Virus record (IMG/VR): IMGVR_UViG_3300037067_009025
Location: 21,950-85,949 of that record
DNA length: 64,000 nucleotides
Strand: one strand, 5' to 3'
DNA from: a virus
Lineage: Duplodnaviria > Caudoviricetes
The translations under genes were made by a program, and so were the position numbers. How positions within the stretch are numbered: the stretch's first letter is position 1; every line of letters starts with the position of its first letter. Below the pieces are notes generated by a model, which searched no databases, had not been told where the DNA came from, and saw nothing but the letters and a program-made list of their open reading frames with translations. Below, piece after piece: positions 1,710-64,000 of this stretch.

Positions 1710-2297
1710 TTAAACGACGCTACCAAACTTCATGCGTCCGTCATCCCCAGCGATAACCCCGACAGTATCCATAATCTCCATATCGAGACTCTTGATAAAG
1801 CTGTCTAAGTCATCCGCAACGTTAGAGAATTGTTTTTGATATTTTCCAATCTTTACCATTTTCACTTGTCCCAGCTTACTGGGAGTAAAAATGGATAACC
1901 CTTTGGTCGCCAATAATGTGACTAAATAATCGTGAATCGCTTCCAGCGTCGCAGCATTGATAGTGTAAGTAATTTCTACCAACTGACCCCCTGAAAATCC
2001 ACCAGAATAATTTACCAATCCAGTATCTGGATTAAATTTCAAATCAGTAAACAAAGTGAAAGCTGTGGTTACATTATCAATTTTCAGTGTATCAATCTGC
2101 TTAATGTTAGAATCAGGCAACTTAATCCACATTCTTGATGTGCTCACAAACTCTCGATGTGTTCTCTGTGTATCGGCTGACCGTAAATCCGTGATTTTAT
2201 AAAAAATAGCCACGGCCCAATCATAAACAGATTGAGGCAAATCCGCATCTGCGATTCCGAGAACAGAAGCCACGGTTGGTTTAGTAATTAGAGCCAT
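1710..2297 (-). CDS. Head-tail connector/adaptor protein
   Basis: 195 aa; N-terminal helices, beta-rich insert, C-terminal VKIGKYQKQF; adjacent to the head-closure gene. Confidence 0.5.
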   Translation of the reverse strand: MALITKPTVASVLGIADADLPQSVYDWAVAIFYKITDLRSADTQRTHREFVSTSRMWIKLPDSNIKQIDTLKIDNVTTAFTLFTDLKFNPDTGLVNYSGGFSGGQLVEITYTINAATLEAIHDYLVTLLATKGLSIFTPSKLGQVKMVKIGKYQKQFSNVADDLDSFIKSLDMEIMDTVGVIAGDDGRMKFGSVV

Positions 2298-3241: not shown

Positions 3242-4279
3242 CTAAATTACCAACTTTTCTGCAATTTGTTTCCAGTAATCAAAAAATCTCTGCTTTTCTT
3301 TCTCTTTAATCTCCAAGATGTTAGGAACCGTGGAGAACACTGGCTGTCCTAAAGCAGGATAATTAGACTGAGAAATCGAAGAGACCCCAACCGTCTCTAA
3401 GATATTGGAACGACTATCATTTAAAACATTCATTACCTGTTTTCCAAGTGATAAGGCCACAACGCTTCCATGAACCCGAAAAGAAATCATCTGGTGAACC
3501 TTTGAATAAATTCTTAAAAGGTCATTGGGAAGACAAACACAAATCAAACGTTCCTTTGGAATAAATTGCTGCCACCAAAGGTATTCACGTTCCTCGTGAA
3601 CTAAATAATACAAAGGATATTCTCCGTCAAAAAACTGTTCTAAATTCAACGAGGCTTTGGCGATTCTCTTACACTCTTCTGGATTTTCTTTTCCTCTCAA
3701 CACAATCAGATTAAACTCATCAGGTTGTTTGGTAACAGAAAACCATTCAGGAGTATAAAAAACACAATCCAAGAATCGGGTATTCGGCACTCCTCCCCGA
3801 GTTAAAAGCTCATTGGTAATTTCATCACGAGTGATAATAAAATCCGCACACTGAGAAAGCTCCTTAAAAATTTCCAGATTGGGAGCTAACATTTTTGATA
3901 CAGCCTCTTCCTTCGTATAGGAATGCTCTGTATATCCAGAACCCAACCAAAAATAGGCTGTCAAGAGACCCTGAGATTTAGCCACCTTCATTCTTTCAAT
4001 CAAATTCCTAACATGGGCCCCACATCCATCTTTATTAAATTGGGGTGTTCCAGCAAAAATAGCCGTTTGAGCCCGCTTATTAACTAAAGACCATGTAAGA
4101 TTATCGTCCTCAGAATCCAAACGGTCAAAAAGATTTGCTTGAGAAAATAATGGCTCTACACCCAAATTTTTCTCAGCCTGAGTGATTAAATATTCCATTC
4201 CTCTAAGGATTAGAATATCCCCAGGATTGACTTTAGGGTTTAAGATGGCCCCAACTAAACAATGGTGTCTAAACTTCAT
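3242..4279 (-). CDS. Polysaccharide pyruvyl transferase family protein
   Basis: NPGD.LI..G, ADFIITRDEIT and SFRVHGSVVALSLG motifs match the family pattern (RD..S; SRLHG.I.A). Confidence 0.7.
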   Translation of the reverse strand: MKFRHHCLVGAILNPKVNPGDILILRGMEYLITQAEKNLGVEPLFSQANLFDRLDSEDDNLTWSLVNKRAQTAIFAGTPQFNKDGCGAHVRNLIERMKVAKSQGLLTAYFWLGSGYTEHSYTKEEAVSKMLAPNLEIFKELSQCADFIITRDEITNELLTRGGVPNTRFLDCVFYTPEWFSVTKQPDEFNLIVLRGKENPEECKRIAKASLNLEQFFDGEYPLYYLVHEEREYLWWQQFIPKERLICVCLPNDLLRIYSKVHQMISFRVHGSVVALSLGKQVMNVLNDSRSNILETVGVSSISQSNYPALGQPVFSTVPNILEIKEKEKQRFFDYWKQIAEKLVI

Positions 4280-4290
4280 GGCCTTTCTCC

Positions 4291-5010
4291 TTAAATTTTG
4301 GGCTCTGCGTAAAAAATTCCCAGTTTCTTATCACGATAATTATCAGGAATAATTACCACATGATTGAAACGTTGCATGTAATTTTTGGCGAAGTCCTTTC
4401 CCACACAATCTGGTAAATGAAATTCACCCACCATATACTTTATTTTTTTCAAAATATCATCTGACATTTGACGAAAGGCTTCCCGTTCTCCACCCTCACA
4501 GTCAAATTTTGCAATGTCAATACTCTGAAACTGAAAGGGGGCCAACTCAACTTCGAGAGTAGACCATTGAATCTCAGTTTCTAATTTGTAAAGACCACTG
4601 GCCAGACATCTATCTAAATTAGCAGGACTAATAAATAATCCACCGCCAGTAGCCCTAATTCCATTAACAAAGATTGTCCGTTCTTTATCGTAATTCACCC
4701 CTTTGTTGATGACAGTGACATTCGCATATCCATTCAATGCCACGTTTCTACGATAAAGTTCAGCATTATCTTTAACGGGCTCAAAAGCTACAATCTGACA
4801 CGATGGCCATAAAGATTTGCATTTCACAGCAAATGTTCCAATGTGTCCGCCCACATCAATGACAAACTTGGGATTAACTCCCCGAGCCTTTAATTGATTG
4901 AGCCGATAAACATCATTCACAAATACCTCGTGAATGACTTCGACATCATTCTGTCTATCAGCACGGACTTCAAATTTCTTACCACCGATAGTCCTTAGCA
5001 CTGTGTTCAT
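4291..5010 (-). CDS. FkbM family SAM-dependent methyltransferase
   Basis: IDVGGHIG SAM motif, VAFEP, IDIAKFDCEGGE. Confidence 0.85.
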   Translation of the reverse strand: MNTVLRTIGGKKFEVRADRQNDVEVIHEVFVNDVYRLNQLKARGVNPKFVIDVGGHIGTFAVKCKSLWPSCQIVAFEPVKDNAELYRRNVALNGYANVTVINKGVNYDKERTIFVNGIRATGGGLFISPANLDRCLASGLYKLETEIQWSTLEVELAPFQFQSIDIAKFDCEGGEREAFRQMSDDILKKIKYMVGEFHLPDCVGKDFAKNYMQRFNHVVIIPDNYRDKKLGIFYAEPKI

Positions 5011-7277
5011 TTCATTATCTCCTTTAGAGTATTTACTATTTTTTCACACGATATTTTATTCATACACTGAGCAGACATGGCCTTAGAACTACATCTGCAA
5101 TTCCGCTCATTACAAGGATAACAAGAGTCCGATGGAACTATAACTGTGGTCTCAGAATATTTTCGCCAATCTGCCTGAATAGACGAGGGTAAAAATATTG
5201 TGGGCTTAGTAAATCCACCAGCAATATGCAGTATGGCTGAATCAACAGACAAACAATAATCACTTCGATTAACGACAGAAAATAATTCTCTGATAGTTGT
5301 CTTTCCACGTAAGTCCAAACAATTAGTATACCGAAGTTCTTTTTTAACACCCACATTTTTTATAACCCAAGATTCATCCCCAGCCGTATCTCCAACTAAA
5401 ACTATTTGCAACTCTGGAAAATTAGCAGCAATCGCATCAATCAATTCCTGTCGTTTTTCCCGAGGATATTCTCTCTTAGCATCGGCACTGGTGAGCCCTA
5501 AACATAATACTTTTTTATCATTATAAAAAAACTTATTAACATAAAATTTTTCTTCCTCAGATAATATGATATGCGGGCGTTGTCTAAGTAAATCCTCTCC
5601 CTTCAATCCAAATAAATGAGCCGTGGCCAATAAACGATGCTGCCTACACCAAGCCAGTTCATACTGAGAGAGCTTATAACTAATTTCAATCTTCCTATGA
5701 TATTGTTTTCTGTCAGTAATGCTATCTTTATAACTTAATGCCTGTCTAACATAAGGAAGATTCGCAAAAGCCTCGGGATACCTGGTGGCAACATCCACCA
5801 CATAACCACGTTGATATAGGGCCTCTAAAGAGGGCGTCAACATTAAAACATCACCCAATCCATCATTATCATAAACCAGGAGAGCATGTTTTTGAATCTC
5901 ATTATTTACAGGAACTATCTGAATGGAAGAATTGGTGATTGTTTTTACTTCTTCTGGAACTTTTAAAATTTGTTTCAATCTCAACTTAAAAGAAACCAAT
6001 TCTTTATAAAGTCCCTCCCAATTAAAATGTGTATAACAAGAACAATTATGGCATTGCCATAAATGAGAAGGAACAAATTGTCTACCAACACATGGATGAC
6101 AATTTACATTTGGTGTCATTGGATGACAATTTTTATAGGTGCTACACCGCCAGGTGGGGTCAAAATAATTCATCAGAGCAAAAGTCTTTTTTTCCAGAGC
6201 ACCAGCTATATGGAGAAACGAAGTATCAATCGTTACAACAAAATCCATTACAGCCATAAGGGCAAATAACTCTCGCAGAGAAACTTGTTTTGTTAAATCA
6301 ATACAATTTTGAAGATTATATTTTCTCAAAGAAGCAGTAAAAACAGTAAACCCCTTTGCTTTAAAAGCATTTATCTTTTCTTGTGCTAAAAATTCTGGCA
6401 TCTTGGCATCGGCTCTATCGCTATCAAATCCAAAAAATAATTTGTTTGGATATATCCCCCATTTTTGACGTGCGGTATTCAATTCATCAGTAGTAAAAAT
6501 TATTTCTGGTTTCAAAATTACCAAATCTTTTCTATCAATACCACATAAGGCAGCGACCGCAAAAATTCTATTTTGCTTATTAAGGTCAGACCTATAATCA
6601 TTCAACACCTGACCAAAGTGTAAAATTAAAATTTTCTCAAATTTACTGACATTGATATGCTTGCGGTCTGTAAAAATCCCAGAAATATAATCCAGATTAG
6701 CAAAACATTCCATCCGATGTTTTTCACAAAGAATAAAAACTTTCTTTCCCTGAGAGGCCAACGTTTTTAAACTTGGAATAGTCAATAAGTGGTCACCAAC
6801 ACCACCAGTAATTTCAACCAAAATATTATCTTTATCTTGGTCTGTCTTTGTCAAAAATTTTTCTAATTCGACATCTGTTTTAATCCGTGGAATTTCATAA
6901 CGAGTAAATTCAGAAAAAGCTCTGGCCAATCTTTCAGAATGGTCATCTGAAAAAACGGCCCGAAACTGAAGTGGATTCATAAAAAGGGTATGAATATACC
7001 AACGGTAGGGACATTCAACATAAATAACGTGGTCATCAATGATAGGATTCTCAGGAAGAGCTTCACAAATGTAAACCACACCAACGTTATTTTTTATAGC
7101 TTGAGCGACAAATGGATGGATTGTTTTTGAACTATCGAGATGGGAAGCAAAACATACCGTCAAAAGACGGCCTGCGGGGGCCCGCATAATGTAATTATTT
7201 TCTTTGACTAAAGCGGAGTGGTCAAGATTGGAAAAATGAATGTGAACATCATCAGAAATCAGTCTGATTGAGGACAT
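5007..7277 (-). CDS. Tandem GT9 (ADP-heptose:LPS heptosyltransferase-like) glycosyltransferase
   Basis: Two GT9 units: GGVGDHLLTIP...IDTSFLHIAGA...CHPC and DGLGDVLMLTP...VDSAILHIAGG...CYPC, plus an unassigned N-terminal domain of about 130 aa. Confidence 0.85.
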   Translation of the reverse strand: MSSIRLISDDVHIHFSNLDHSALVKENNYIMRAPAGRLLTVCFASHLDSSKTIHPFVAQAIKNNVGVVYICEALPENPIIDDHVIYVECPYRWYIHTLFMNPLQFRAVFSDDHSERLARAFSEFTRYEIPRIKTDVELEKFLTKTDQDKDNILVEITGGVGDHLLTIPSLKTLASQGKKVFILCEKHRMECFANLDYISGIFTDRKHINVSKFEKILILHFGQVLNDYRSDLNKQNRIFAVAALCGIDRKDLVILKPEIIFTTDELNTARQKWGIYPNKLFFGFDSDRADAKMPEFLAQEKINAFKAKGFTVFTASLRKYNLQNCIDLTKQVSLRELFALMAVMDFVVTIDTSFLHIAGALEKKTFALMNYFDPTWRCSTYKNCHPMTPNVNCHPCVGRQFVPSHLWQCHNCSCYTHFNWEGLYKELVSFKLRLKQILKVPEEVKTITNSSIQIVPVNNEIQKHALLVYDNDGLGDVLMLTPSLEALYQRGYVVDVATRYPEAFANLPYVRQALSYKDSITDRKQYHRKIEISYKLSQYELAWCRQHRLLATAHLFGLKGEDLLRQRPHIILSEEEKFYVNKFFYNDKKVLCLGLTSADAKREYPREKRQELIDAIAANFPELQIVLVGDTAGDESWVIKNVGVKKELRYTNCLDLRGKTTIRELFSVVNRSDYCLSVDSAILHIAGGFTKPTIFLPSSIQADWRKYSETTVIVPSDSCYPCNERNCRCSSKAMSAQCMNKISCEKIVNTLKEIMK

Positions 7278-7325: not shown

Positions 7326-7354
7326 AGTATAACACACATTTGCTGCGTTGTCAA
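7326..7354 (-). promoter_or_regulatory. Sigma70-type promoter for the glycosylation cassette
   Basis: Minus strand TTGACA-17 nt-TATACT with TGn extended -10, about 50 nt upstream of the GT9 start. Confidence 0.8.
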
Positions 7355-7619: not shown

Positions 7620-8555
7620 TTACGAGGTCTTCTGGATAAGAACCAGACCGTTGTAATCCCCATCACCGCTGGTCAGGGCCCATTTGAAATCGAACCAATA
7701 GGTCACAACCAACAGGTCAGCCCGACGGCCAGCTTTGTGCTCCACGTCCGCTTCGATGTTACCGAAGTAGCCCGCAAAGGCACCGCTCATGTTCGCCAGG
7801 ATGGCTTTTTCACCCGTCAAGAGCATTCTCTTGATAACGGGGATACCATGAAGATGGACAACGTTCTTGAGGCCCAGAGCAGGGACATCCTCTAAGTCAT
7901 ACCCGACCATGTTCTTGTCGGCGGACTTTTTCGCAGCAGCCAAGAAGTTCGGAGATGCGAAGATTACGAGGTTTTCCTTGTCTTCCTCTTCACCATAGAC
8001 ACCCAAGCTATTCTGAGCTTCGGCAACGGCATCCAAAATATTCTGGGCGTTGGAAGTCGTATAGCTCACAGGAGTGGCTTCGGCGGTTCCAGAAGCAGAA
8101 AGCACTTCGAGACCATCGGTAATCGTCAACGGATTGGTTGCACCAATGGCAGTAGTATCACCCTTGATGGCAACTTTGTCCGCTGTGCGAGCGATAGCAC
8201 GAGCGATTTTGTTTCTGAAGAGGTTCTCCAACTGAAGCTGCGGATACTGCTTTACCTGTTTCGTCTTCAGGTAAATATAGGTTCCGAGTTCAACGGGGGC
8301 CAAATCAGGAGACTTCACATCGAACGTCATCTCGTTCAGAGTCGTGATGTCCGCAGTATTGTCAATGCGATACACTCTGTCCAGAGATTCCTCGCCGATG
8401 ACAGGCACAGTGCCTTCATTGACGATTTCGATGAACTGACCACGAGACTCGACCATCCGAAGGATGAGCGACTTCTCGACAGCATCGTGAACAATTTTAT
8501 CAACCAACTCTTTAGGAAGATTGGTTGCACTACCAGCAGGAATTAAGAAATCCAT
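7620..8555 (-). CDS. Major capsid protein (HK97-like fold)
   Basis: 311 aa; LP.E.V..IV......S.I.R N-terminus; directly after the prohead protease; strong RBS and own terminator. Confidence 0.8.
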   Translation of the reverse strand: MDFLIPAGSATNLPKELVDKIVHDAVEKSLILRMVESRGQFIEIVNEGTVPVIGEESLDRVYRIDNTADITTLNEMTFDVKSPDLAPVELGTYIYLKTKQVKQYPQLQLENLFRNKIARAIARTADKVAIKGDTTAIGATNPLTITDGLEVLSASGTAEATPVSYTTSNAQNILDAVAEAQNSLGVYGEEEDKENLVIFASPNFLAAAKKSADKNMVGYDLEDVPALGLKNVVHLHGIPVIKRMLLTGEKAILANMSGAFAGYFGNIEADVEHKAGRRADLLVVTYWFDFKWALTSGDGDYNGLVLIQKTS

Positions 8556-8595: not shown

Positions 8596-9789
8596 TTATT
8601 TTCTTGAGATTAAATTGCTGAAAAATGAATCAGCGTTTCCGCCCTTTGCCTTCTGTTGGGCGACCTGTCTTACTGTATCTATGTTATCAACTTCAACGGA
8701 TTTTCTTACTTCGACCATTTCGGCCTTTAACGTCTTGACCTCTTCCGAAGTCGCTTCGTTGGCAGCCATCCTGGTTTCCAGCTTGGCCATCCGTTCTGAT
8801 AACTCGCAATTCTTCTGATTGAGTTCCCCAAGTTGCCCCTTGAGAGCAGCGTTTTCAGCCTTTACGGCATCCAATTCCGCCCTTAAAGCATCTTCGGGTT
8901 TCCCAGCGACGGGCTCAGGTTCCTTGCCAGCATCAGCAGTTGAGACAGTAGAAGTTGACTCCGCAGCTTTAGTTTCCTCTGCTTTTGCTTCCGCAGGTGC
9001 GGGCTCGACAGATTTTTCCTCGGCTTTAGGAGTTTCAGGAGCAGCTTCCGCTTTCTTTTCTTCAGCGGGTTTCTCCTCGGTTTTTTTGCAAGTGCAATTC
9101 TCTTTATCTTCACATTTGCACTCGGCTTTCCGTCTCGCCTCATCCTTCTTTAAGAGGTCACGGAAATTGATTCGACGAGTTTCCTCATCTTCCAAAATCC
9201 CACGAGTTACCAACTCACGGGAAAACTTTTCAACTTCAGCATCACTGAGAGCCTCGGGATTTCCAGGAACAGGAACCGCAGAATACTCAAGCATTTCCCA
9301 TTCGGAGATAATCCAAATTCCCCAGAACGCATTATCCTCAAACTGCTTCTGCGTAATCGTCACATTGAGGTTGTATTTCTTTTTCAACTCCTCAAAATTC
9401 ACAGGAGTCACTTCCTCAAAAGTCTTCGGCATGAAACCGATTGACCACGCATTTAAGAAACCATCCTTATAAGCGTTGAAAACTTTCATTGACAACGCAT
9501 CATTCGGATTGAATTCAGTTGTGCAAACAATCTCGTCCTCACCAACTTGCAAATCCACGCAGCGTCCAATCGGAACTTGCATCGTGGATTTATCCATATT
9601 GTGAAGCCAAAGAACAACAGGATTCTTCGTGTAATGCTTTACGTCGGCACCTTTGGGCAGAACGATTGTCATGTATCTGTCCAGGGCCTTCGTGTTCACA
9701 ACGTGAGTAATCCTGAAATTCTCAGCATCAACACTACGAACTGAAGTCGTGAGGAAATTTCTCTCTTTAATTCCAGCGTTAATTCGCAT
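8596..9789 (-). CDS. HK97-type prohead protease with C-terminal scaffold-like coiled coil
   Basis: DRY..IV.P.G, NPVVLW.HN, PIG, WSIGF, LEYSAVPVPGNP.A motifs; Ala/Glu/Lys-rich linker and coiled-coil tail. Confidence 0.85.
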   Translation of the reverse strand: MRINAGIKERNFLTTSVRSVDAENFRITHVVNTKALDRYMTIVLPKGADVKHYTKNPVVLWLHNMDKSTMQVPIGRCVDLQVGEDEIVCTTEFNPNDALSMKVFNAYKDGFLNAWSIGFMPKTFEEVTPVNFEELKKKYNLNVTITQKQFEDNAFWGIWIISEWEMLEYSAVPVPGNPEALSDAEVEKFSRELVTRGILEDEETRRINFRDLLKKDEARRKAECKCEDKENCTCKKTEEKPAEEKKAEAAPETPKAEEKSVEPAPAEAKAEETKAAESTSTVSTADAGKEPEPVAGKPEDALRAELDAVKAENAALKGQLGELNQKNCELSERMAKLETRMAANEATSEEVKTLKAEMVEVRKSVEVDNIDTVRQVAQQKAKGGNADSFFSNLISRK

Positions 9790-35075: not shown

Positions 35076-35741
35076 ATGTTACAAAATCCTGATGCCAATA
35101 TCATAAAAAGCCAGGGTATTGATAGACCCTTCCTTTATGTCTATTTGGCTGGACGTATTGCGGGAGATTGTATTGACAAGTGTCTATCCTGGCGTCATCA
35201 AATTGTGGATTATTACCGCAATTATAAAGGCAAGGGAGCGTATCCTATTGTCTTTTTGGATGCCTTGAATTCTAAAGAGGCAGATAGTATTGACACTAAA
35301 GGTCTAACTTCAGCCATACCGCCCAATATGATTTATGATAAAGATTTGTTGAGCGTTGAGACAGCAGATGTTGTTGTGGCCAATATGGCCGATTATATGG
35401 ATGCGGGAATCGAAGAGCTTTTAAAAATCCCCAACCCCGATGAGTATAAAGAAGGTTCGGATTATCCCTATAAAGACTTTGATTTTTGCAAAGCCTTTTT
35501 TCAATTACAGGAACGTATTGTGAATCGGCGTCCTAATTGGGGAACGGATTCTGAGGTTTCTTGGGCCCTATATTTGAAAAAGCCATTGATTCTTATCGCC
35601 AGTTCGGATATTCAAAAATCCATGTTAGAAAAACATCCTTTTATGAAGAGAGCTTCCGTCATTGTGGGTTCTGCGGAAGAACTTCTGGATAAGAAATGGC
35701 TGAACATTCTTTACAAATCCATTTCAGGAGCGATTTATTAA
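35076..35741 (+). CDS. Nucleoside 2-deoxyribosyltransferase-like protein
   Basis: VYLAG, D...VETADVVVA, GT.SEV.WA...KP. Confidence 0.7.
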   Translation: MLQNPDANIIKSQGIDRPFLYVYLAGRIAGDCIDKCLSWRHQIVDYYRNYKGKGAYPIVFLDALNSKEADSIDTKGLTSAIPPNMIYDKDLLSVETADVVVANMADYMDAGIEELLKIPNPDEYKEGSDYPYKDFDFCKAFFQLQERIVNRRPNWGTDSEVSWALYLKKPLILIASSDIQKSMLEKHPFMKRASVIVGSAEELLDKKWLNILYKSISGAIY

Positions 35742-35743
35742 AC

Positions 35744-36607
35744 ATGAAAGTTCTTTGTCCTTCGCCCGAGTTTTATTATTCCCTTGCCAGAGAACATGCT
35801 TGGTATGATTATCTTATGCGGGGATTTAAGCAAATTGCTGAGGTCGAATATTCCTCGGGGCTCACGAAATTTGCTTCTAAGTTCTTTGATAAAAGTTTAT
35901 TGATGTTTGAGATTCAAGGGCGTAAAATCATTTATGATTATTCTGATTTTACAGGCAAACAAGTGCACGGAATAGATGACGCCGAATACTTTAAAGTTCA
36001 GGCCCTCCCCAAAGATGGCACTAAGCCTATTGGCCAAGTTGTAATGGATGTCTCATTCATGGATAAACTTATTCAACTGCGAGAAGTCAAAGACCAACGA
36101 GTTTATGATTATGATGTTGTTGGTTTGTTTCGGACAACGAATATGACTTGGAGATATAAAGCAGTTGAGATTGTCAACGCCAGACCTGATTGGCGAACTA
36201 TGTGCGGATTGCATGTAAATAATCTAACAGAAAATGTCCCTGAGCCATTAAAACGCAACCGCCTTAAGTATGATGCTTATTTGAATCTTCAAGTCAGGTC
36301 AAAATTGGTATTGGTATTTGCAGGTCTCGGTGGTAAAGCAGCCTTTAGCTGGCGATTAACTGAAGCCTTAGCAATGGGCTGTGCTGTGGTCACACATTTC
36401 CATGACACAGTTTTACCGAACCATAAGAAATTCCAGCAAGGTATCATTGAGGTAAGCCCAGACTTAAAAGATTTGGAGTCTGTTATTGAGCATTACCTAC
36501 AAAATGATGTCGAAAGAGAGCAAATAGCTCAAGTGGGCCGTGAGTATTTTGAGAAATATTTGGCTCCAAAGCAAATGGCTCAGAGACTAATCAAAGGGGC
36601 AAAATAA
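35744..36607 (+). CDS. Glycosyltransferase (GT-B, CgeB/Glyco_trans_1_2-like)
   Basis: C-terminal RLTEALAMGC...HYLQNDVEREQIAQVG. Confidence 0.75.
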   Translation: MKVLCPSPEFYYSLAREHAWYDYLMRGFKQIAEVEYSSGLTKFASKFFDKSLLMFEIQGRKIIYDYSDFTGKQVHGIDDAEYFKVQALPKDGTKPIGQVVMDVSFMDKLIQLREVKDQRVYDYDVVGLFRTTNMTWRYKAVEIVNARPDWRTMCGLHVNNLTENVPEPLKRNRLKYDAYLNLQVRSKLVLVFAGLGGKAAFSWRLTEALAMGCAVVTHFHDTVLPNHKKFQQGIIEVSPDLKDLESVIEHYLQNDVEREQIAQVGREYFEKYLAPKQMAQRLIKGAK

Positions 36608-37224
36608 TGAGTCCAGCAGACAACGTTAAAATCATCAATAATTATCTCAAGGTCTATCTCATCGGGCCAATGGAAAAAACTCAGGCCGATGATGCAGGCC
36701 GTGGTTGGCGAGATAAGATTCGTCCAGAACTTGAGGGGCTAATAGACCCCTCGGGGAATCCTATTTACATTTTCGACCCTACCCGAGAAGAGCAGAATAA
36801 GGTCGGCCTTGAACCAAAAGCCTTCCATAAAAAGCTCAAAGGATGGATAAGTGGTGGCAACAATGACAAGATTGCTGAGGGCACCCGCATGATTTGGAAG
36901 GGTAAAAGCTATCTTGAACCAGGCACAGAACCAGGAACTGAGAGATTGATTCATCTCCTGGGAGATGTGGATTATGTTTTAAATTCTACCTTTTTAATCG
37001 CCCGAATGGAAGAAGGCGACCAACCCTGTGGCACTTATGGTGAAGCCTGTATGGCATTCGCCAGCAATATTCCAATCTATGTTCTTCAAACCATGCCCCG
37101 AGAAAAATATCCAGTTACCTTTACAGGCTGGGTCTTTGGAAGCGGTGGTGATTTCTTTCCTAATCAAACCCAGTTGATAGAATTTCTGGTGAAGAAATAT
37201 AATTTAAAACCCATCAAGAAATAA
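36607..37224 (+). CDS. Second nucleoside 2-deoxyribosyltransferase-like protein
   Basis: VYLIGPME, DVDYVLNS, GTYGEACMA. Confidence 0.65.
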   Translation: MSPADNVKIINNYLKVYLIGPMEKTQADDAGRGWRDKIRPELEGLIDPSGNPIYIFDPTREEQNKVGLEPKAFHKKLKGWISGGNNDKIAEGTRMIWKGKSYLEPGTEPGTERLIHLLGDVDYVLNSTFLIARMEEGDQPCGTYGEACMAFASNIPIYVLQTMPREKYPVTFTGWVFGSGGDFFPNQTQLIEFLVKKYNLKPIKK

Positions 37225-37238
37225 GCGAGGATTTTCCT

Positions 37239-37550
37239 ATGCAGGTTACTTATTGCGATTTGTGTGGACTCCCAGTTCACGGAAAACGGTATTACTTGGT
37301 GGTGGTTGCAGATGACCCCAGACAGGGTGCACATAGACCACCGCAATCGAAGGAGCAATATGAGATAGACGAATCTTGTTATGCTCTTTTAGGTAAAATC
37401 TTTGATTTGAAAAAGGCCAAAATTGCCGAAATCAAAGAATATCTTGATGAACAATATAAGCTGCCCTCGAATCGCAAAAAGAAATCCAAGTCCAGAAAAG
37501 GAACCAAAATCTATTTCCATGTTCAACCAAAGAAAACTGGGAGTAAGTAA
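37239..37550 (+). CDS. Hypothetical protein
   Basis: CDLC motif, basic tail. Confidence 0.5.
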   Translation: MQVTYCDLCGLPVHGKRYYLVVVADDPRQGAHRPPQSKEQYEIDESCYALLGKIFDLKKAKIAEIKEYLDEQYKLPSNRKKKSKSRKGTKIYFHVQPKKTGSK

Positions 37551-37551
37551 C

Positions 37552-38145
37552 ATGTCCGAATTTACTGAAGTAAAAGATTCTGGAAAGCGTCAGGAATTTT
37601 CTACGGGGTCTCGCAGAGATACAGATGATGGAAAGGGTTGGCCACATTTAGTTGCAGGGGAACCCTTTAATGTCATCCTTAATAAATATGGCTCCTGGAC
37701 AACCACCGAGTTTCAGGTAGAGCAACCCCTTGTTGAATGTTTAAAGGAACTCTTTGCCTATAGCCGATTTGAAGAAACTCGGGAAGCAGGCGAAGACCAT
37801 CTTCATAGAGCAATCATGTTTACTATGAGGGCTATTGCCGAGACAGAGGATGGGACATTCAATTCAGTTTTACGTCGTTTGGCGGTGCATTATCAAAACG
37901 GGGCTAAGAAATATGCCAAAAATAATTGGCGCAAAGGACAGCCCATTACACGATATTATGATTCAGCCATGCGCCACCTGGCAAAGGCTGTTGATGGTTT
38001 GAAAGATGAAGACCATCTTGCAGCCCTTCTGTGGAACTTATTTGGGATTGTTCAGATGAAGATTGACGTAAAGCGTGGGCTCTTACCACCCCAAATTGAC
38101 GATTTTCCCTTTACTACGGGAGAAACTTTCGTAAAGGCCACATAA
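37552..38145 (+). CDS. dATP/dGTP diphosphohydrolase-like (DUF5664) protein
   Basis: F.TGSRRD...GKG, GAKKYAKNNWRKG, YYDSAMRHL, EDHLAA..WN. Confidence 0.75.
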   Translation: MSEFTEVKDSGKRQEFSTGSRRDTDDGKGWPHLVAGEPFNVILNKYGSWTTTEFQVEQPLVECLKELFAYSRFEETREAGEDHLHRAIMFTMRAIAETEDGTFNSVLRRLAVHYQNGAKKYAKNNWRKGQPITRYYDSAMRHLAKAVDGLKDEDHLAALLWNLFGIVQMKIDVKRGLLPPQIDDFPFTTGETFVKAT

Positions 38146-62282: not shown

Positions 62283-62714
62283 ATGATTAACCAAGTAAAT
62301 AAAAATTGGGGTTCAGAAGATTGGCTGGTCAACAATGAAAAATATTGTGCCAAGTTTCTGAATCTAAACCACGGGTATCAGTGCAGCGTTCACTATCACG
62401 CATGTAAGGATGAAACCTTTTATGTTCTTGCAGGGGAAGTGGAACTCTATGTTGTTGAACTGTTACCCTATTCCCGCATTTATCCACTTGAACAAGCTGA
62501 AATTGATGAGTGGTATAAAGAAATTCTGACCAGGAAAGAAGAAATTCTTGCATCAATGCAGAAAATTGTCTTGACTCATGGCCAGCAATATCGTCTGAAA
62601 CCCTTTACAGCCCATAAGTTTACATCAATTACATCTGGGGCTAAGATTCTGGAAATCAGCACGACGCACTATGAAGAAGACAGTTACCGACTCACAGAAT
62701 CGGGAAAGGTATAA
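62283..62714 (+). CDS. Cupin (sugar-phosphate isomerase-like)
   Basis: KNWGSEDWLVN, SVHYH..KDETFYVL.G, H.F...LEIST.HYEEDSYR. Confidence 0.75.
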   Translation: MINQVNKNWGSEDWLVNNEKYCAKFLNLNHGYQCSVHYHACKDETFYVLAGEVELYVVELLPYSRIYPLEQAEIDEWYKEILTRKEEILASMQKIVLTHGQQYRLKPFTAHKFTSITSGAKILEISTTHYEEDSYRLTESGKV

Positions 62715-62715
62715 T

Positions 62716-63258
62716 ATGGATAAGTTGGAGAAACTTGAAAGAGCTTTTCAAAAAACACTTTGGGATAATATTGTGAGTTTCTTTCACGAATATGCTGAGG
62801 TGTTGGACAGAATGGTTTATTGGGCAGGGGCCATGAAGCGGAGCTACGACTTCGATGGGCACACATTTTATGATATGCTTTATCGAAAGCTGGACAGAAT
62901 GTATGTCTGTTTTTTAAAGCACGGTCATTGCGTGTGGAATAGTAAGCCCAGCAATAAATTGATGAGAAAGCTCTTAATTGCAAAGAATCTGGCTCATAGG
63001 TTGGCCGAGAATGATTATCATACAAAAGCAGATGCGGTGACAGCCAAGTATGGTAATGTTCAAATGGCCTTCTCCCCTATTCCCGAACGTCACGTATCAC
63101 GAGTTGACTTTTATATGGAGAAAGCCACACCCGCTGAACAGAAAAAAGCCTTGAACGAATTACATAAGGCCCACGCCGAAGATGATAAACAGCGGGAAGT
63201 TGAGAAAAAATATTTGTTTAACCTGGTGCAAAAGCACATTGACCAATGGTGGGACTGA
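62716..63258 (+). CDS. Hypothetical helical protein
   Basis: Start reassigned to MDKLEK; ends HIDQWWD. Confidence 0.55.
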   Translation: MDKLEKLERAFQKTLWDNIVSFFHEYAEVLDRMVYWAGAMKRSYDFDGHTFYDMLYRKLDRMYVCFLKHGHCVWNSKPSNKLMRKLLIAKNLAHRLAENDYHTKADAVTAKYGNVQMAFSPIPERHVSRVDFYMEKATPAEQKKALNELHKAHAEDDKQREVEKKYLFNLVQKHIDQWWD

Positions 63259-63584
63259 TGGCATCGGCTGAATATATGCGGGAATATTTTAAAAATAACC
63301 CGTGGATACAGGTCTTAAATTGGGCCAGACGCCGTTGTAATAATCCCCATCATTCCAAATTTCGCTGGTATGGTGGTAAAGGGATTAAATGTCTTTTAAC
63401 TAAAGAAGATGTAAAAGAACTATGGTTTAGAGACCATGCTTATGCTATGATGCAACCCAGTTTGGACAGAAAAAAGACCGACAAAGACTATACTCTGGAT
63501 AATTGCAGATTCATTGAACTAAATAAAAATCGGGCCACAAGTATTTTTAAACTTGGACACCCCAGCTATCACAAGGAAAAATAA
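63258..63584 (+). CDS. HNH-like endonuclease
   Basis: RRRCNNP...YGGKGIKC...SLDR...DYTLDNCRFI. Confidence 0.65.
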   Translation: MASAEYMREYFKNNPWIQVLNWARRRCNNPHHSKFRWYGGKGIKCLLTKEDVKELWFRDHAYAMMQPSLDRKKTDKDYTLDNCRFIELNKNRATSIFKLGHPSYHKEK

Positions 63585-63585
63585 G

Positions 63586-64000
63586 ATGAAAGAACTCAAA
63601 GACCTGAAAATTTTAGTCCTCGGTGATATTATCTTGGATGAATATGTTGAAGGAACCGTAACTCGTCTTTCACCAGAAGCACCCATCCCAATTTTGGATA
63701 AAACAAAAACATGGTATCGCCTGGGCGGAGCCAGTAATGTTGCCAAGAATATCTCTTCACTGGGAGCCTACGTCCTTCAAATGGGTCGTGTAGGTATAGA
63801 CAGGGCGGGAGAGATTGTTCACTCCGAATTGGAGAAGAGCAAGATTGACGTTATGGGTGTGATTTGTGACCCAAATATTCCGACCATCGTTAAGACCCGT
63901 TTCGTCTGTCATAACACCCAATTATTGAGAGTGGATTATGAAGATAGACGTTCCATTGAGAACACAGAAATCGGAGATTCAGTGAATGAGTATATTAGAT
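63586..64000 (+). CDS. hldE: Heptose-7-phosphate kinase (HldE/RfaE kinase domain), partial
   Basis: Own translation, runs off the window: ILVLGDIILDEYVEGTVTRLSPEAPIP...LGGASNVAKNISSLG...TIVKTRF...QLLRVDYE closely matches HldE GDVMLD.Y..G...RISPEAPVP...GGAANVA.NIASLG. Confidence 0.88.
   Translation, partial: MKELKDLKILVLGDIILDEYVEGTVTRLSPEAPIPILDKTKTWYRLGGASNVAKNISSLGAYVLQMGRVGIDRAGEIVHSELEKSKIDVMGVICDPNIPTIVKTRFVCHNTQLLRVDYEDRRSIENTEIGDSVNEYIR

Follow-up and report, generated by a model that had tools for sequence, protein, structure and literature searches.

Three described systems come close to the locus analysed here, which encodes a 756-residue tandem glycosyltransferase of family GT9 and lies in a 64,000-nucleotide stretch (bases 21950-85949, hereafter the window) of the 85,949-bp viral record IMGVR_UViG_3300037067_009025 from IMG/VR. 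The first is the family of bacterial autotransporter heptosyltransferases (BAHT; TibC, Aah), in which TibC is the protein O-heptosyltransferase of autotransporters (PDB 4RAP/4RB4; eLife 2014, PMC4358343). The second comprises the lipopolysaccharide (LPS) heptosyltransferases WaaC (HepI; PDB 2GT1/2H1H/6DFE) and WaaF (HepII; 1PSW). The third is found in mycobacteriophages. Published accounts give Che8, Corndog/cluster O and Myrna as examples of virion glycosylation (PMC11600133, PMC12619734, PMC13313380) and describe, for cluster O, an O-methyltransferase and three glycosyltransferases that modify the capsid and the tail tube (PMC11600133, citing Freeman et al. 2023). For the locus in the window we favour, with moderate confidence, a role in which a virion protein, probably that of the capsid, is glycosylated with heptose in the cytoplasm and receives a decoration that varies between lineages.

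The ORF (open reading frame) for the tandem protein is present as predicted originally from the sequence alone, on what proved to be the minus strand, and the description given there, two complete GT9 units each ending in a cysteine cluster, held up on closer analysis. With the Pfam family Glyco_transf_9 (PF01075) the whole protein scores 78 bits over two stretches (cut-off 22), and each unit by itself also exceeds the cut-off (unit 2, 48.1 bits; unit 1, 33.8 bits). We predicted the full-length structure with AlphaFold2 from an alignment of 60 homologues (predicted local distance difference test, pLDDT, 91.5) and modelled residues 1-445 a second time (pLDDT 92.8). The predicted structure has three parts and one disordered linker at residues 445-462. 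Each unit forms a full GT-B fold, and the top matches in the PDB are GT9 enzymes throughout: unit 2 (463-756) matches 3tov with Z 24.3, WaaF with 23.8, TibC with 22.2 and WaaC with 20.7, and unit 1 (148-437) matches the same four structures with Z 22.7, 22.0, 20.5 and 19.6, respectively. GT-B folds outside GT9 score Z ≤13 for both units. The profile and structure comparison with WaaC, WaaF and TibC that had been proposed along with the prediction (Z 19-24 to these three and 3tov) thus confirms GT9.

Alignment with HMMER places the invariant residues D162 and D476 on the GD motif of WaaC/WaaF that holds WaaC Asp13, S286/K292 of unit 1 and an S/R pair of unit 2 on WaaC T187/K192, and D351-T352/H356 and D678-S679/H684 on WaaC D261-T262...H. 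We take Asp13 of WaaC to be the catalytic base and T187, K192 and D261-T262 to be donor-binding residues. Because the Asp and the donor-binding motifs align with those of WaaC/WaaF, both GT9 units look catalytically competent. Profile, fold and motifs alike place the protein in GT9. Its two units share 28% identity (E 2e-27) and are closer to one another than either is to any cellular GT9, which argues that the tandem arose by duplication within the clade.

The four conserved cysteines at the end of each unit (C393/C396/C409/C414 and C719/C722/C729/C738) have a counterpart in TibC. Alignment of profile positions 15-120 with TibC 229-344 pairs the CxxC motif (positions 115/118) with Cys339/Cys342 of TibC, two of the four iron-finger ligands of that enzyme (PMC4358343), and no such cluster occurs in WaaC, WaaF or 3tov. 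The spacing is CxxC-x12-C-x4-C and CxxC-x6-C-x8-C here versus CxxC-x15-C-x11-C in TibC. We regard both clusters as putative metal fingers in a TibC-like position. What the original two-domain description lacked is an extra conserved N-terminal domain (residues 1-147), which has no known fold match and no match in Pfam, PHROG or Atlas. A weak RNase J match (E 0.008) was disregarded. The domain also precedes the GT9 unit of single-unit homologues, and we see it as a candidate acceptor-recognition domain.

With the BAHT enzymes the phage protein thus shares a GT9-type GT-B core (Z 20-22), a four-Cys finger at the same place in the C-lobe, an extra N-terminal domain ahead of the core, a soluble and cytoplasmic nature and, presumably, a protein substrate encoded by the neighbouring gene. 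It differs from them in being only weakly similar in sequence (TibC profile E 7e-4), in carrying two catalytic units in one chain, in its Cys spacing, and in an N-terminal domain with no convincing match to the TibC beta-barrel. Its gene lies next to a capsid gene and not an autotransporter gene, and no BAHT-specific NCBIfam model is among the matches at E ≤0.01. The phage protein shares the Cys finger, but as its substrate context is a different one we do not count it as a member of BAHT. Most plausibly it works like one and O-heptosylates, in the cytoplasm, the protein encoded by the neighbouring gene.

WaaC and WaaF are the best relatives in sequence and fold, their catalytic Asp and D-T/S-G...H motif align with those of the phage protein, and ADP-heptose is the expected donor. 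They lack, however, the Cys finger, the N-terminal domain and the tandem arrangement, and the phage gene sits in a head module rather than in a waa operon. Tested against the LPS heptosyltransferase equivalogs, the protein remained below every cut-off (TIGR02195, HepII, 65.8 versus 134.6; TIGR02193, HepI, 50.4 versus 185.3; TIGR02201, HepIII, 35.5 versus 170.2; PRK models, 24-39 versus 437-569), and therefore it is not a WaaC/F/Q orthologue.

Gene order links the GT9 gene to the capsid gene. We examined 22 contigs that carry a capsid homologue and enough downstream DNA, comprising the window, eight capsid relatives, IMG/VR loci from a scan with a capsid profile, and contigs reached through GT9 homologues. 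A GT9 relative lies directly 3' of the capsid gene in every one of them (22/22), with one endonuclease-like ORF between the two genes in two cases, and this over capsid identities to the window that run from 93% down to 25%. The original prediction had set the GT9 gene between the capsid and connector genes; it does adjoin the capsid gene, but it is not alone there, since an FkbM methyltransferase gene, a pyruvyl-transferase-like gene and two small ORFs follow before the head-tail adaptor gene is reached. The intervening ORFs of the two exceptional relatives are endonuclease-I-like (L016:1726-2409 and L017:6275-6925), and selfish elements appear to target the conserved capsid-GT9 junction.

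Behind the GT9 gene, close relatives carry different sets of genes between conserved flanks. The cassette consists of FkbM and a pyruvyl transferase in the window, FkbM, TylF and a pyruvyl transferase in L023, a methyltransferase and a GT4 enzyme in L006, an O-methyltransferase in L012, and TylF, a TagF-like glycerophosphotransferase, a nucleotidyl/acetyl-transferase and an aminotransferase in L007. Five further loci (L013, L016, L017, L021 and L024) encode a cytidylyltransferase, an SDR protein and LicD, with or without DUF2284 or UPF0047. At the other extreme, L022 and L025 have no cassette gene behind GT9, and there are minimal loci in which a single N-terminal domain plus GT9 unit is the sole sugar gene. 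GT2 and GT4 enzymes occur among the variable members in relatives, and cassettes differ even between relatives whose capsid proteins are 70-90% identical. No transmembrane segment was predicted in any cassette protein, and scanning the cassette and flanking ORFs with Pfam revealed no flippase, ligase or polyprenyl-phosphate transferase. Because the genes behind GT9 differ between relatives, the slot behaves like a glycan-decoration locus, one in which the N-terminal domain and unit 1, as the putative initiating enzyme, are conserved and the tailoring steps exchangeable.

The same pattern of a constant start and a variable end is seen within the GT9 protein itself. Its relatives number 41 at cluster level in 5.8 billion proteins, and 39 representatives were found at E<1e-30 in 1.8 billion proteins. 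All are metagenomic, on contigs of up to ~92 kb, so that the clade is so far known from phage-sized metagenomic contigs only. Some consist of the N-terminal domain and one GT9 unit (~420-445 residues), others are tandems whose second unit belongs to one of two strongly divergent types (15-20% identical to each other), and others again are GT2 or Capsule_synth fusions. The di-heptose product proposed originally is not supported as stated: unit 2 is replaced in relatives by a very different GT9 type, by GT2 or by Capsule_synth, or is absent. Inteins (Hint/Intein_splicing domains) interrupt some of the homologues (P0023, P0030 and P0042, the last being L032:8217-12500); inteins tend to be found in conserved, needed phage genes, and we count them in favour of a function in the phage particle. 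In BFVD, proteins with a GT9 fold are annotated in uncultured phages without an assigned role. We also observed a group of giant cellular proteins (P0085 and ~40 similar ones, 1,400-3,100 residues) in which long TPR arrays are joined to between three and six GT9 units. As fusions of TPR arrays with glycosyltransferases usually have proteins for substrates, protein-directed GT9 enzymes may be commoner than the BAHT family alone suggests.

The record has a CheckV completeness of 95% and is classed as linear in IMG/VR despite an end repeat. Its first ~125 bases recur at 85820 (window 63871-64000 versus contig bases 1-125), which marks a circular or terminally redundant assembly; behind it stands probably a circularly permuted or terminally redundant genome, and the artificial contig end cuts through a kinase gene. 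In this ~95% complete genome with overlapping ends we found no recombinase of the tyrosine or serine type, integrase, resolvase or lysogeny module, and a scan of 185,579 species genomes with two patterns revealed no copy of the GT9 gene, either prophage or cellular. Lysogenic conversion is therefore unlikely, and the virus appears as an uncultured, lytic-looking phage of 86 kb. We found no tRNAs in it. Among 50,697 GenBank phage records neither the GT9 protein, the first 20 kb nor the capsid has a DNA or protein match, and the terminase has distant matches only (<29% identity).

The split gene bears on the supply of heptose. An HldE kinase had been predicted at 63.6 kb and, from it, a phage-encoded pathway of heptose glycosylation. 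The gene does encode a heptose-7-phosphate-kinase-like protein, but one that is HldA-like, has domain I only and spans the contig junction. The ORF at 63553-64000 reaches 144 bits with TIGR02198 over the first 129 of 315 profile positions and continues at contig bases 1-654, with a PfkB C-terminal part at 55-654; circularised, the kinase has 323 residues and its gene is located after a DnaB-like helicase gene. Full-length homologues in related phages score 308-330 bits with TIGR02198, just under the cut-off of 345. The kinase is present in the window phage and in five of ten related records, two of the three complete ones included, an indirect hint at ADP-heptose as the donor. A complete phage heptose pathway is ruled out, since GmhA/SIS, a GmhB-type phosphatase and HldE domain II (the adenylyltransferase) are all missing from the window phage, and five relatives have no GmhA. 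Matches of the cytidylyltransferase type in relatives turned out to be cassette genes (66-73 bits versus a cut-off of 181). With the kinase as the only pathway enzyme present, the phage can at most boost the ADP-heptose pathway of its host. Cellular homologues of the kinase (36-42% identity) come from a wide range of diderm phyla, Omnitrophota ranking first, and for this reason we make no host assignment. Upstream (5') of the kinase gene are a cupin/D-lyxose-isomerase-like ORF (62283-62714) and two ORFs without a family match (62671-63258 and 63246-63584). These three are not conserved beside the kinase in relatives, and their service as non-orthologous replacements for GmhA or GmhB is possible but unsupported.

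Transcription signals indicate when the enzyme would be made. The hairpin 3' of the capsid gene (7601-7574) is the best terminator-like site in 12 kb, and a GC-rich hairpin followed by a T run is found past the capsid stop codon in nearly all related loci. Where the gap between the capsid and GT9 genes is long, a TTGAC(A/T)-17-TATACT promoter lies ahead of GT9 and would restart transcription past the capsid terminator; gaps of only 70-100 nt contain none. The window has 12 copies of TTGACA-N17-TATACT where chance predicts 0.29. They head gene blocks on either strand, and many of the 12 extend to TTGACAACGCA...TGTGnTATACT. They form a phage-wide family of sigma-70-type promoters with an extended -10 element, which argues for a host that uses classical -35/-10 promoters. 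We found no terminator after the cassette, and the promoter ahead of GT9 also serves the downstream neck and tail genes. The GT9 protein is thus made together with the virion genes, at a level below that of the capsid protein.

We propose the following mechanism. The GT9 protein would be a soluble, cytoplasmic, two-headed enzyme with a protein of the phage particle as its substrate, most likely the major capsid protein, whose gene lies just upstream. Aided by the N-terminal domain and the Cys4 finger, unit 1 would recognise the protein acceptor and move a first heptose from host-made ADP-heptose onto Ser/Thr, as TibC does on autotransporters, and unit 2 would then add a second sugar. The co-transcribed FkbM methyltransferase could O-methylate the short glycan and the pyruvyl transferase could cap it with pyruvate. 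Relatives would keep the N-terminal domain and unit 1 and swap unit 2 and the decorators (O-methyl, pyruvyl, LicD/cytidylyltransferase phospho-alcohol, TagF-like, GT2/GT4), and the outcome would be a lineage-variable glycan coat, one that may often be anionic given the presence of pyruvyl- and phospho-transfer enzymes. The HldA-like kinase would raise flux through the host ADP-heptose pathway during infection. As to the site of attachment, a capsid segment PV-x-Y-(TT)-S (residues ~160-170, roughly 8046-8078 on the minus strand) is conserved between capsid proteins from 93% to 25% identity, with Y165 invariant and S168 nearly so, next to a variable flank rich in Ser/Thr/Ala. We consider this segment a candidate glycosylation site.

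As a whole, the system most plausibly works like the virion-glycosylation cassettes of mycobacteriophages. Both have phage glycosyltransferases and a methyltransferase, here two GT9 units and FkbM in one virion-module operon. The mycobacteriophages differ in having actinobacterial hosts, and in them the modification of capsid and tail tube is demonstrated. To our knowledge, the mycobacteriophage enzymes are not GT9, transfer no heptose and have no fixed place behind the capsid gene, nor do we know of any nucleotide-sugar precursor kinase, or of pyruvyl, LicD or TagF-like decorators, in those systems.

Taken together, several lines of evidence speak for glycosylation of the virion: a capsid-GT9 adjacency that is kept over deep divergence, minimal loci in which a single GT9 protein is the sole sugar gene, a TibC-like Cys finger with an added N-terminal domain, soluble enzymes without lipid-carrier or flippase machinery among the scanned ORFs, the lack of an integrase, a partly co-conserved kinase, a variable cassette, and inteins in homologues. 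Other observations weigh against it. Gene adjacency alone is no proof of substrate, and at L008/L009 a single GT9 gene is found near the portal gene and not behind the capsid gene (the same locus carries a TylF methyltransferase and a pyruvyl-transferase/methyltransferase fusion). The solved relative nearest in sequence is WaaF, at E 1.6e-12, and the TibC profile reaches only the value given above; by fold, 3tov, WaaF and TibC lie within ~2 Z units and TibC is not favoured. Comparison of the N-terminal domain with the TibC beta-barrel gave no convincing fold match; no more than ~17 further residues, and these in a single chain, could be aligned with the N-terminus of TibC. The aligned capsid proteins have no Ser/Thr-rich tail or extension, and in mycobacteriophages C-terminal glycan sites are reported (PMC12619734). 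One complete relative lacks the kinase. Finally, the promoter ahead of GT9 is of the general type of the phage and feeds neck and tail genes, and so there is no special program for GT9.

The original prediction had left open whether virion proteins are glycosylated or host LPS is altered. The virion option has gained from the adjacency in 22 contigs, the TibC-like finger and the missing integrase, and LPS modification persists as a live but weaker rival, which we judge unlikely. On that account the tandem GT9 protein would add heptoses to the LPS inner core (or to another lipid-linked glycan at the cytoplasmic face) and the methyl- and pyruvyl-transferases would cap them, blocking adsorption of competing phages or the trapping of progeny on debris. 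The LPS core is the acceptor of most characterised GT9 enzymes, the BAHTs being the known exception, and WaaF is the best match in sequence and nearly the best in fold, but all LPS heptosyltransferase equivalogs score far under their cut-offs, and WaaC and WaaF have neither the Cys4 finger nor the N-terminal domain. Solubility does not separate the two accounts, as WaaC and WaaF are likewise soluble or peripheral cytoplasmic enzymes, and a hypervariable cassette would also suit receptor masking. The cellular homologues of the kinase, being almost entirely diderm, fit LPS as well. A place behind the capsid gene in a virion operon, kept down to 25% capsid identity, is however odd for a role at the host surface, and the genome has no integrase or lysogeny module.

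Distinctly improbable, in our estimate, is an acceptor of another kind, such as phage DNA with glycosylated hypermodified bases, a protein of phage or host that has no structural role, or some soluble metabolite. Phage GT-B enzymes that add one or two heptoses to 5-hydroxymethylcytosine in DNA have been reconstituted, but the DNA heptosyltransferase described is T4 beta-GT-like and not GT9 (bioRxiv 10.1101/2023.12.21.572611). This phage does have a nucleotide-modification-like cluster at 35-38 kb; that cluster, however, sits in the replication region and has a glycosyltransferase of its own. The pyruvyl, LicD and TagF-like partners are decorators of polysaccharides or of teichoic-type polymers, and such acceptors would leave the linkage to the capsid gene unexplained. 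Very improbable, finally, is a role without catalysis, in head assembly or structure, for a protein that has retained no more than the GT9 fold, like PnsB1 in the chloroplast NDH complex: PnsB1 is among the top fold matches (Z 18-20) and head accessory proteins are often encoded at this position, but D162/D476, the D-T/S...H motif and the basic residue at WaaC K192 are family-conserved, several of them invariant, the GT9 gene travels with sugar-modifying enzymes or a fused GT2/Capsule_synth domain, and the heptose kinase is co-conserved.

The features of the locus and its surroundings are collected in Table 1. The start of the FkbM methyltransferase gene and the stop of the GT9 gene overlap by 4 nt, and the two small ORFs mentioned above lie between the pyruvyl-transferase-like gene and the head-tail adaptor gene. 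The pyruvyl-transferase-like protein covers all of the PF04230 profile (positions 1-280 of 280) and remains below the cut-off of the CsaB equivalog (17.6 versus 213). PADLOC gave no defence-system match for the GT9 protein or the pyruvyl transferase. The cluster at window 35076-38145 comprises an ORF weakly resembling nucleoside 2-deoxyribosyltransferases, a GT-B glycosyltransferase (Glyco_trans_1_2), an ORF without assignment, and a protein with a dATP/dGTP diphosphohydrolase N-terminal domain (PF18909). This cluster stands apart from the capsid-linked cassette and may serve to modify nucleotides or DNA bases. Contig bases 2222-2794 and 5512-6678 (L003) encode an M50-family peptidase (118 bits) and a BT1/MFS-type transporter (87 bits), membrane proteins that are unusual as phage cargo.

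Table 1. Features of the capsid-GT9 region, the kinase gene and the promoter family, in window coordinates.
Feature	Position	Strand	Evidence or remarks
Prohead protease with coiled-coil (scaffold-like) C-terminus	8596..9789	-	Pfam Peptidase_S78; PHROG head maturation protease; opens the head block listed here
Major capsid protein, HK97 type, 311 aa, proposed acceptor	7620..8555	-	Pfam Phage_capsid, 32 bits; PHROG_10 major head protein
Intrinsic terminator directly past capsid stop codon	7574..7601	-	12-bp GC-rich stem and T run
Promoter TTGACA-17-TATACT, extended -10	7326..7354	-	11/12 match
Tandem GT9 protein, 756 aa	5007-7277	-	ATG start; GGAGA Shine-Dalgarno
N-terminal domain, residues 1-147	6837..7277	-	family-conserved; mixed beta/alpha; pLDDT >90
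GT9 unit 1, residues 148-440	5958..6836	-	GD motif D162; S286/R288/K292; D351-T352; H356; Cys393/396/409/414
GT9 unit 2, residues 463-756	5010..5891	-	D476; D678-S679; H684; Cys719/722/729/738
FkbM-family S-adenosylmethionine (SAM) methyltransferase	4291..5010	-	TIGR01444, 79.7 bits vs cut-off 37.7; Pfam Methyltransf_21
Polysaccharide pyruvyl-transferase-family protein	3242..4279	-	Pfam PS_pyruv_trans (PF04230), 51.6 bits vs 25.3
Head-tail adaptor, end of variable slot	1710..2297	-	PHROG_442; conserved 195-aa ORF in relatives
HldA-like (RfaE domain I) heptose-7-phosphate kinase, N-terminal part	63553..64000	+	TIGR02198
Promoter copies in the window	7326, 11409, 14671, 17258, 23198, 24426, 26389, 29622, 33845, 38355, 46710, 50748		

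In the literature that we searched, glycosylation of phage particles has been demonstrated for actinobacteriophages only, where it alters antibody recognition, and we found there no link between GT9 or heptose and phage particles. The lineage described here suggests virion glycosylation in unrelated phages, through a different enzyme family (GT9), with a different sugar and with a gene for nucleotide-sugar supply. A broader version of this proposal, which we put forward tentatively and hold to be somewhat short of probable, is that O-glycosylation of the phage's own capsid is widespread, though so far undescribed, in tailed phages of (probably diderm) bacteria: enzymes of a phage-specific GT9 clade with a TibC-like Cys4 finger, and in this lineage an N-terminal targeting domain, would lay down heptose from an HldA-boosted pool of ADP-heptose, and a swapping cassette would add methyl, pyruvate or phospho-glycerol/ribitol/choline groups, giving teichoic-acid-like surfaces that differ among close relatives. 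The swapping of cassettes between phages with 70-90% identical capsid proteins would point to strong diversifying selection on a glycan-covered surface, with adsorption to cell debris, grazers and recognition by host defences as possible pressures. If the proposal is true, the Cys4-finger GT9 enzymes would have virion proteins as natural substrates of a second class, next to the autotransporters.

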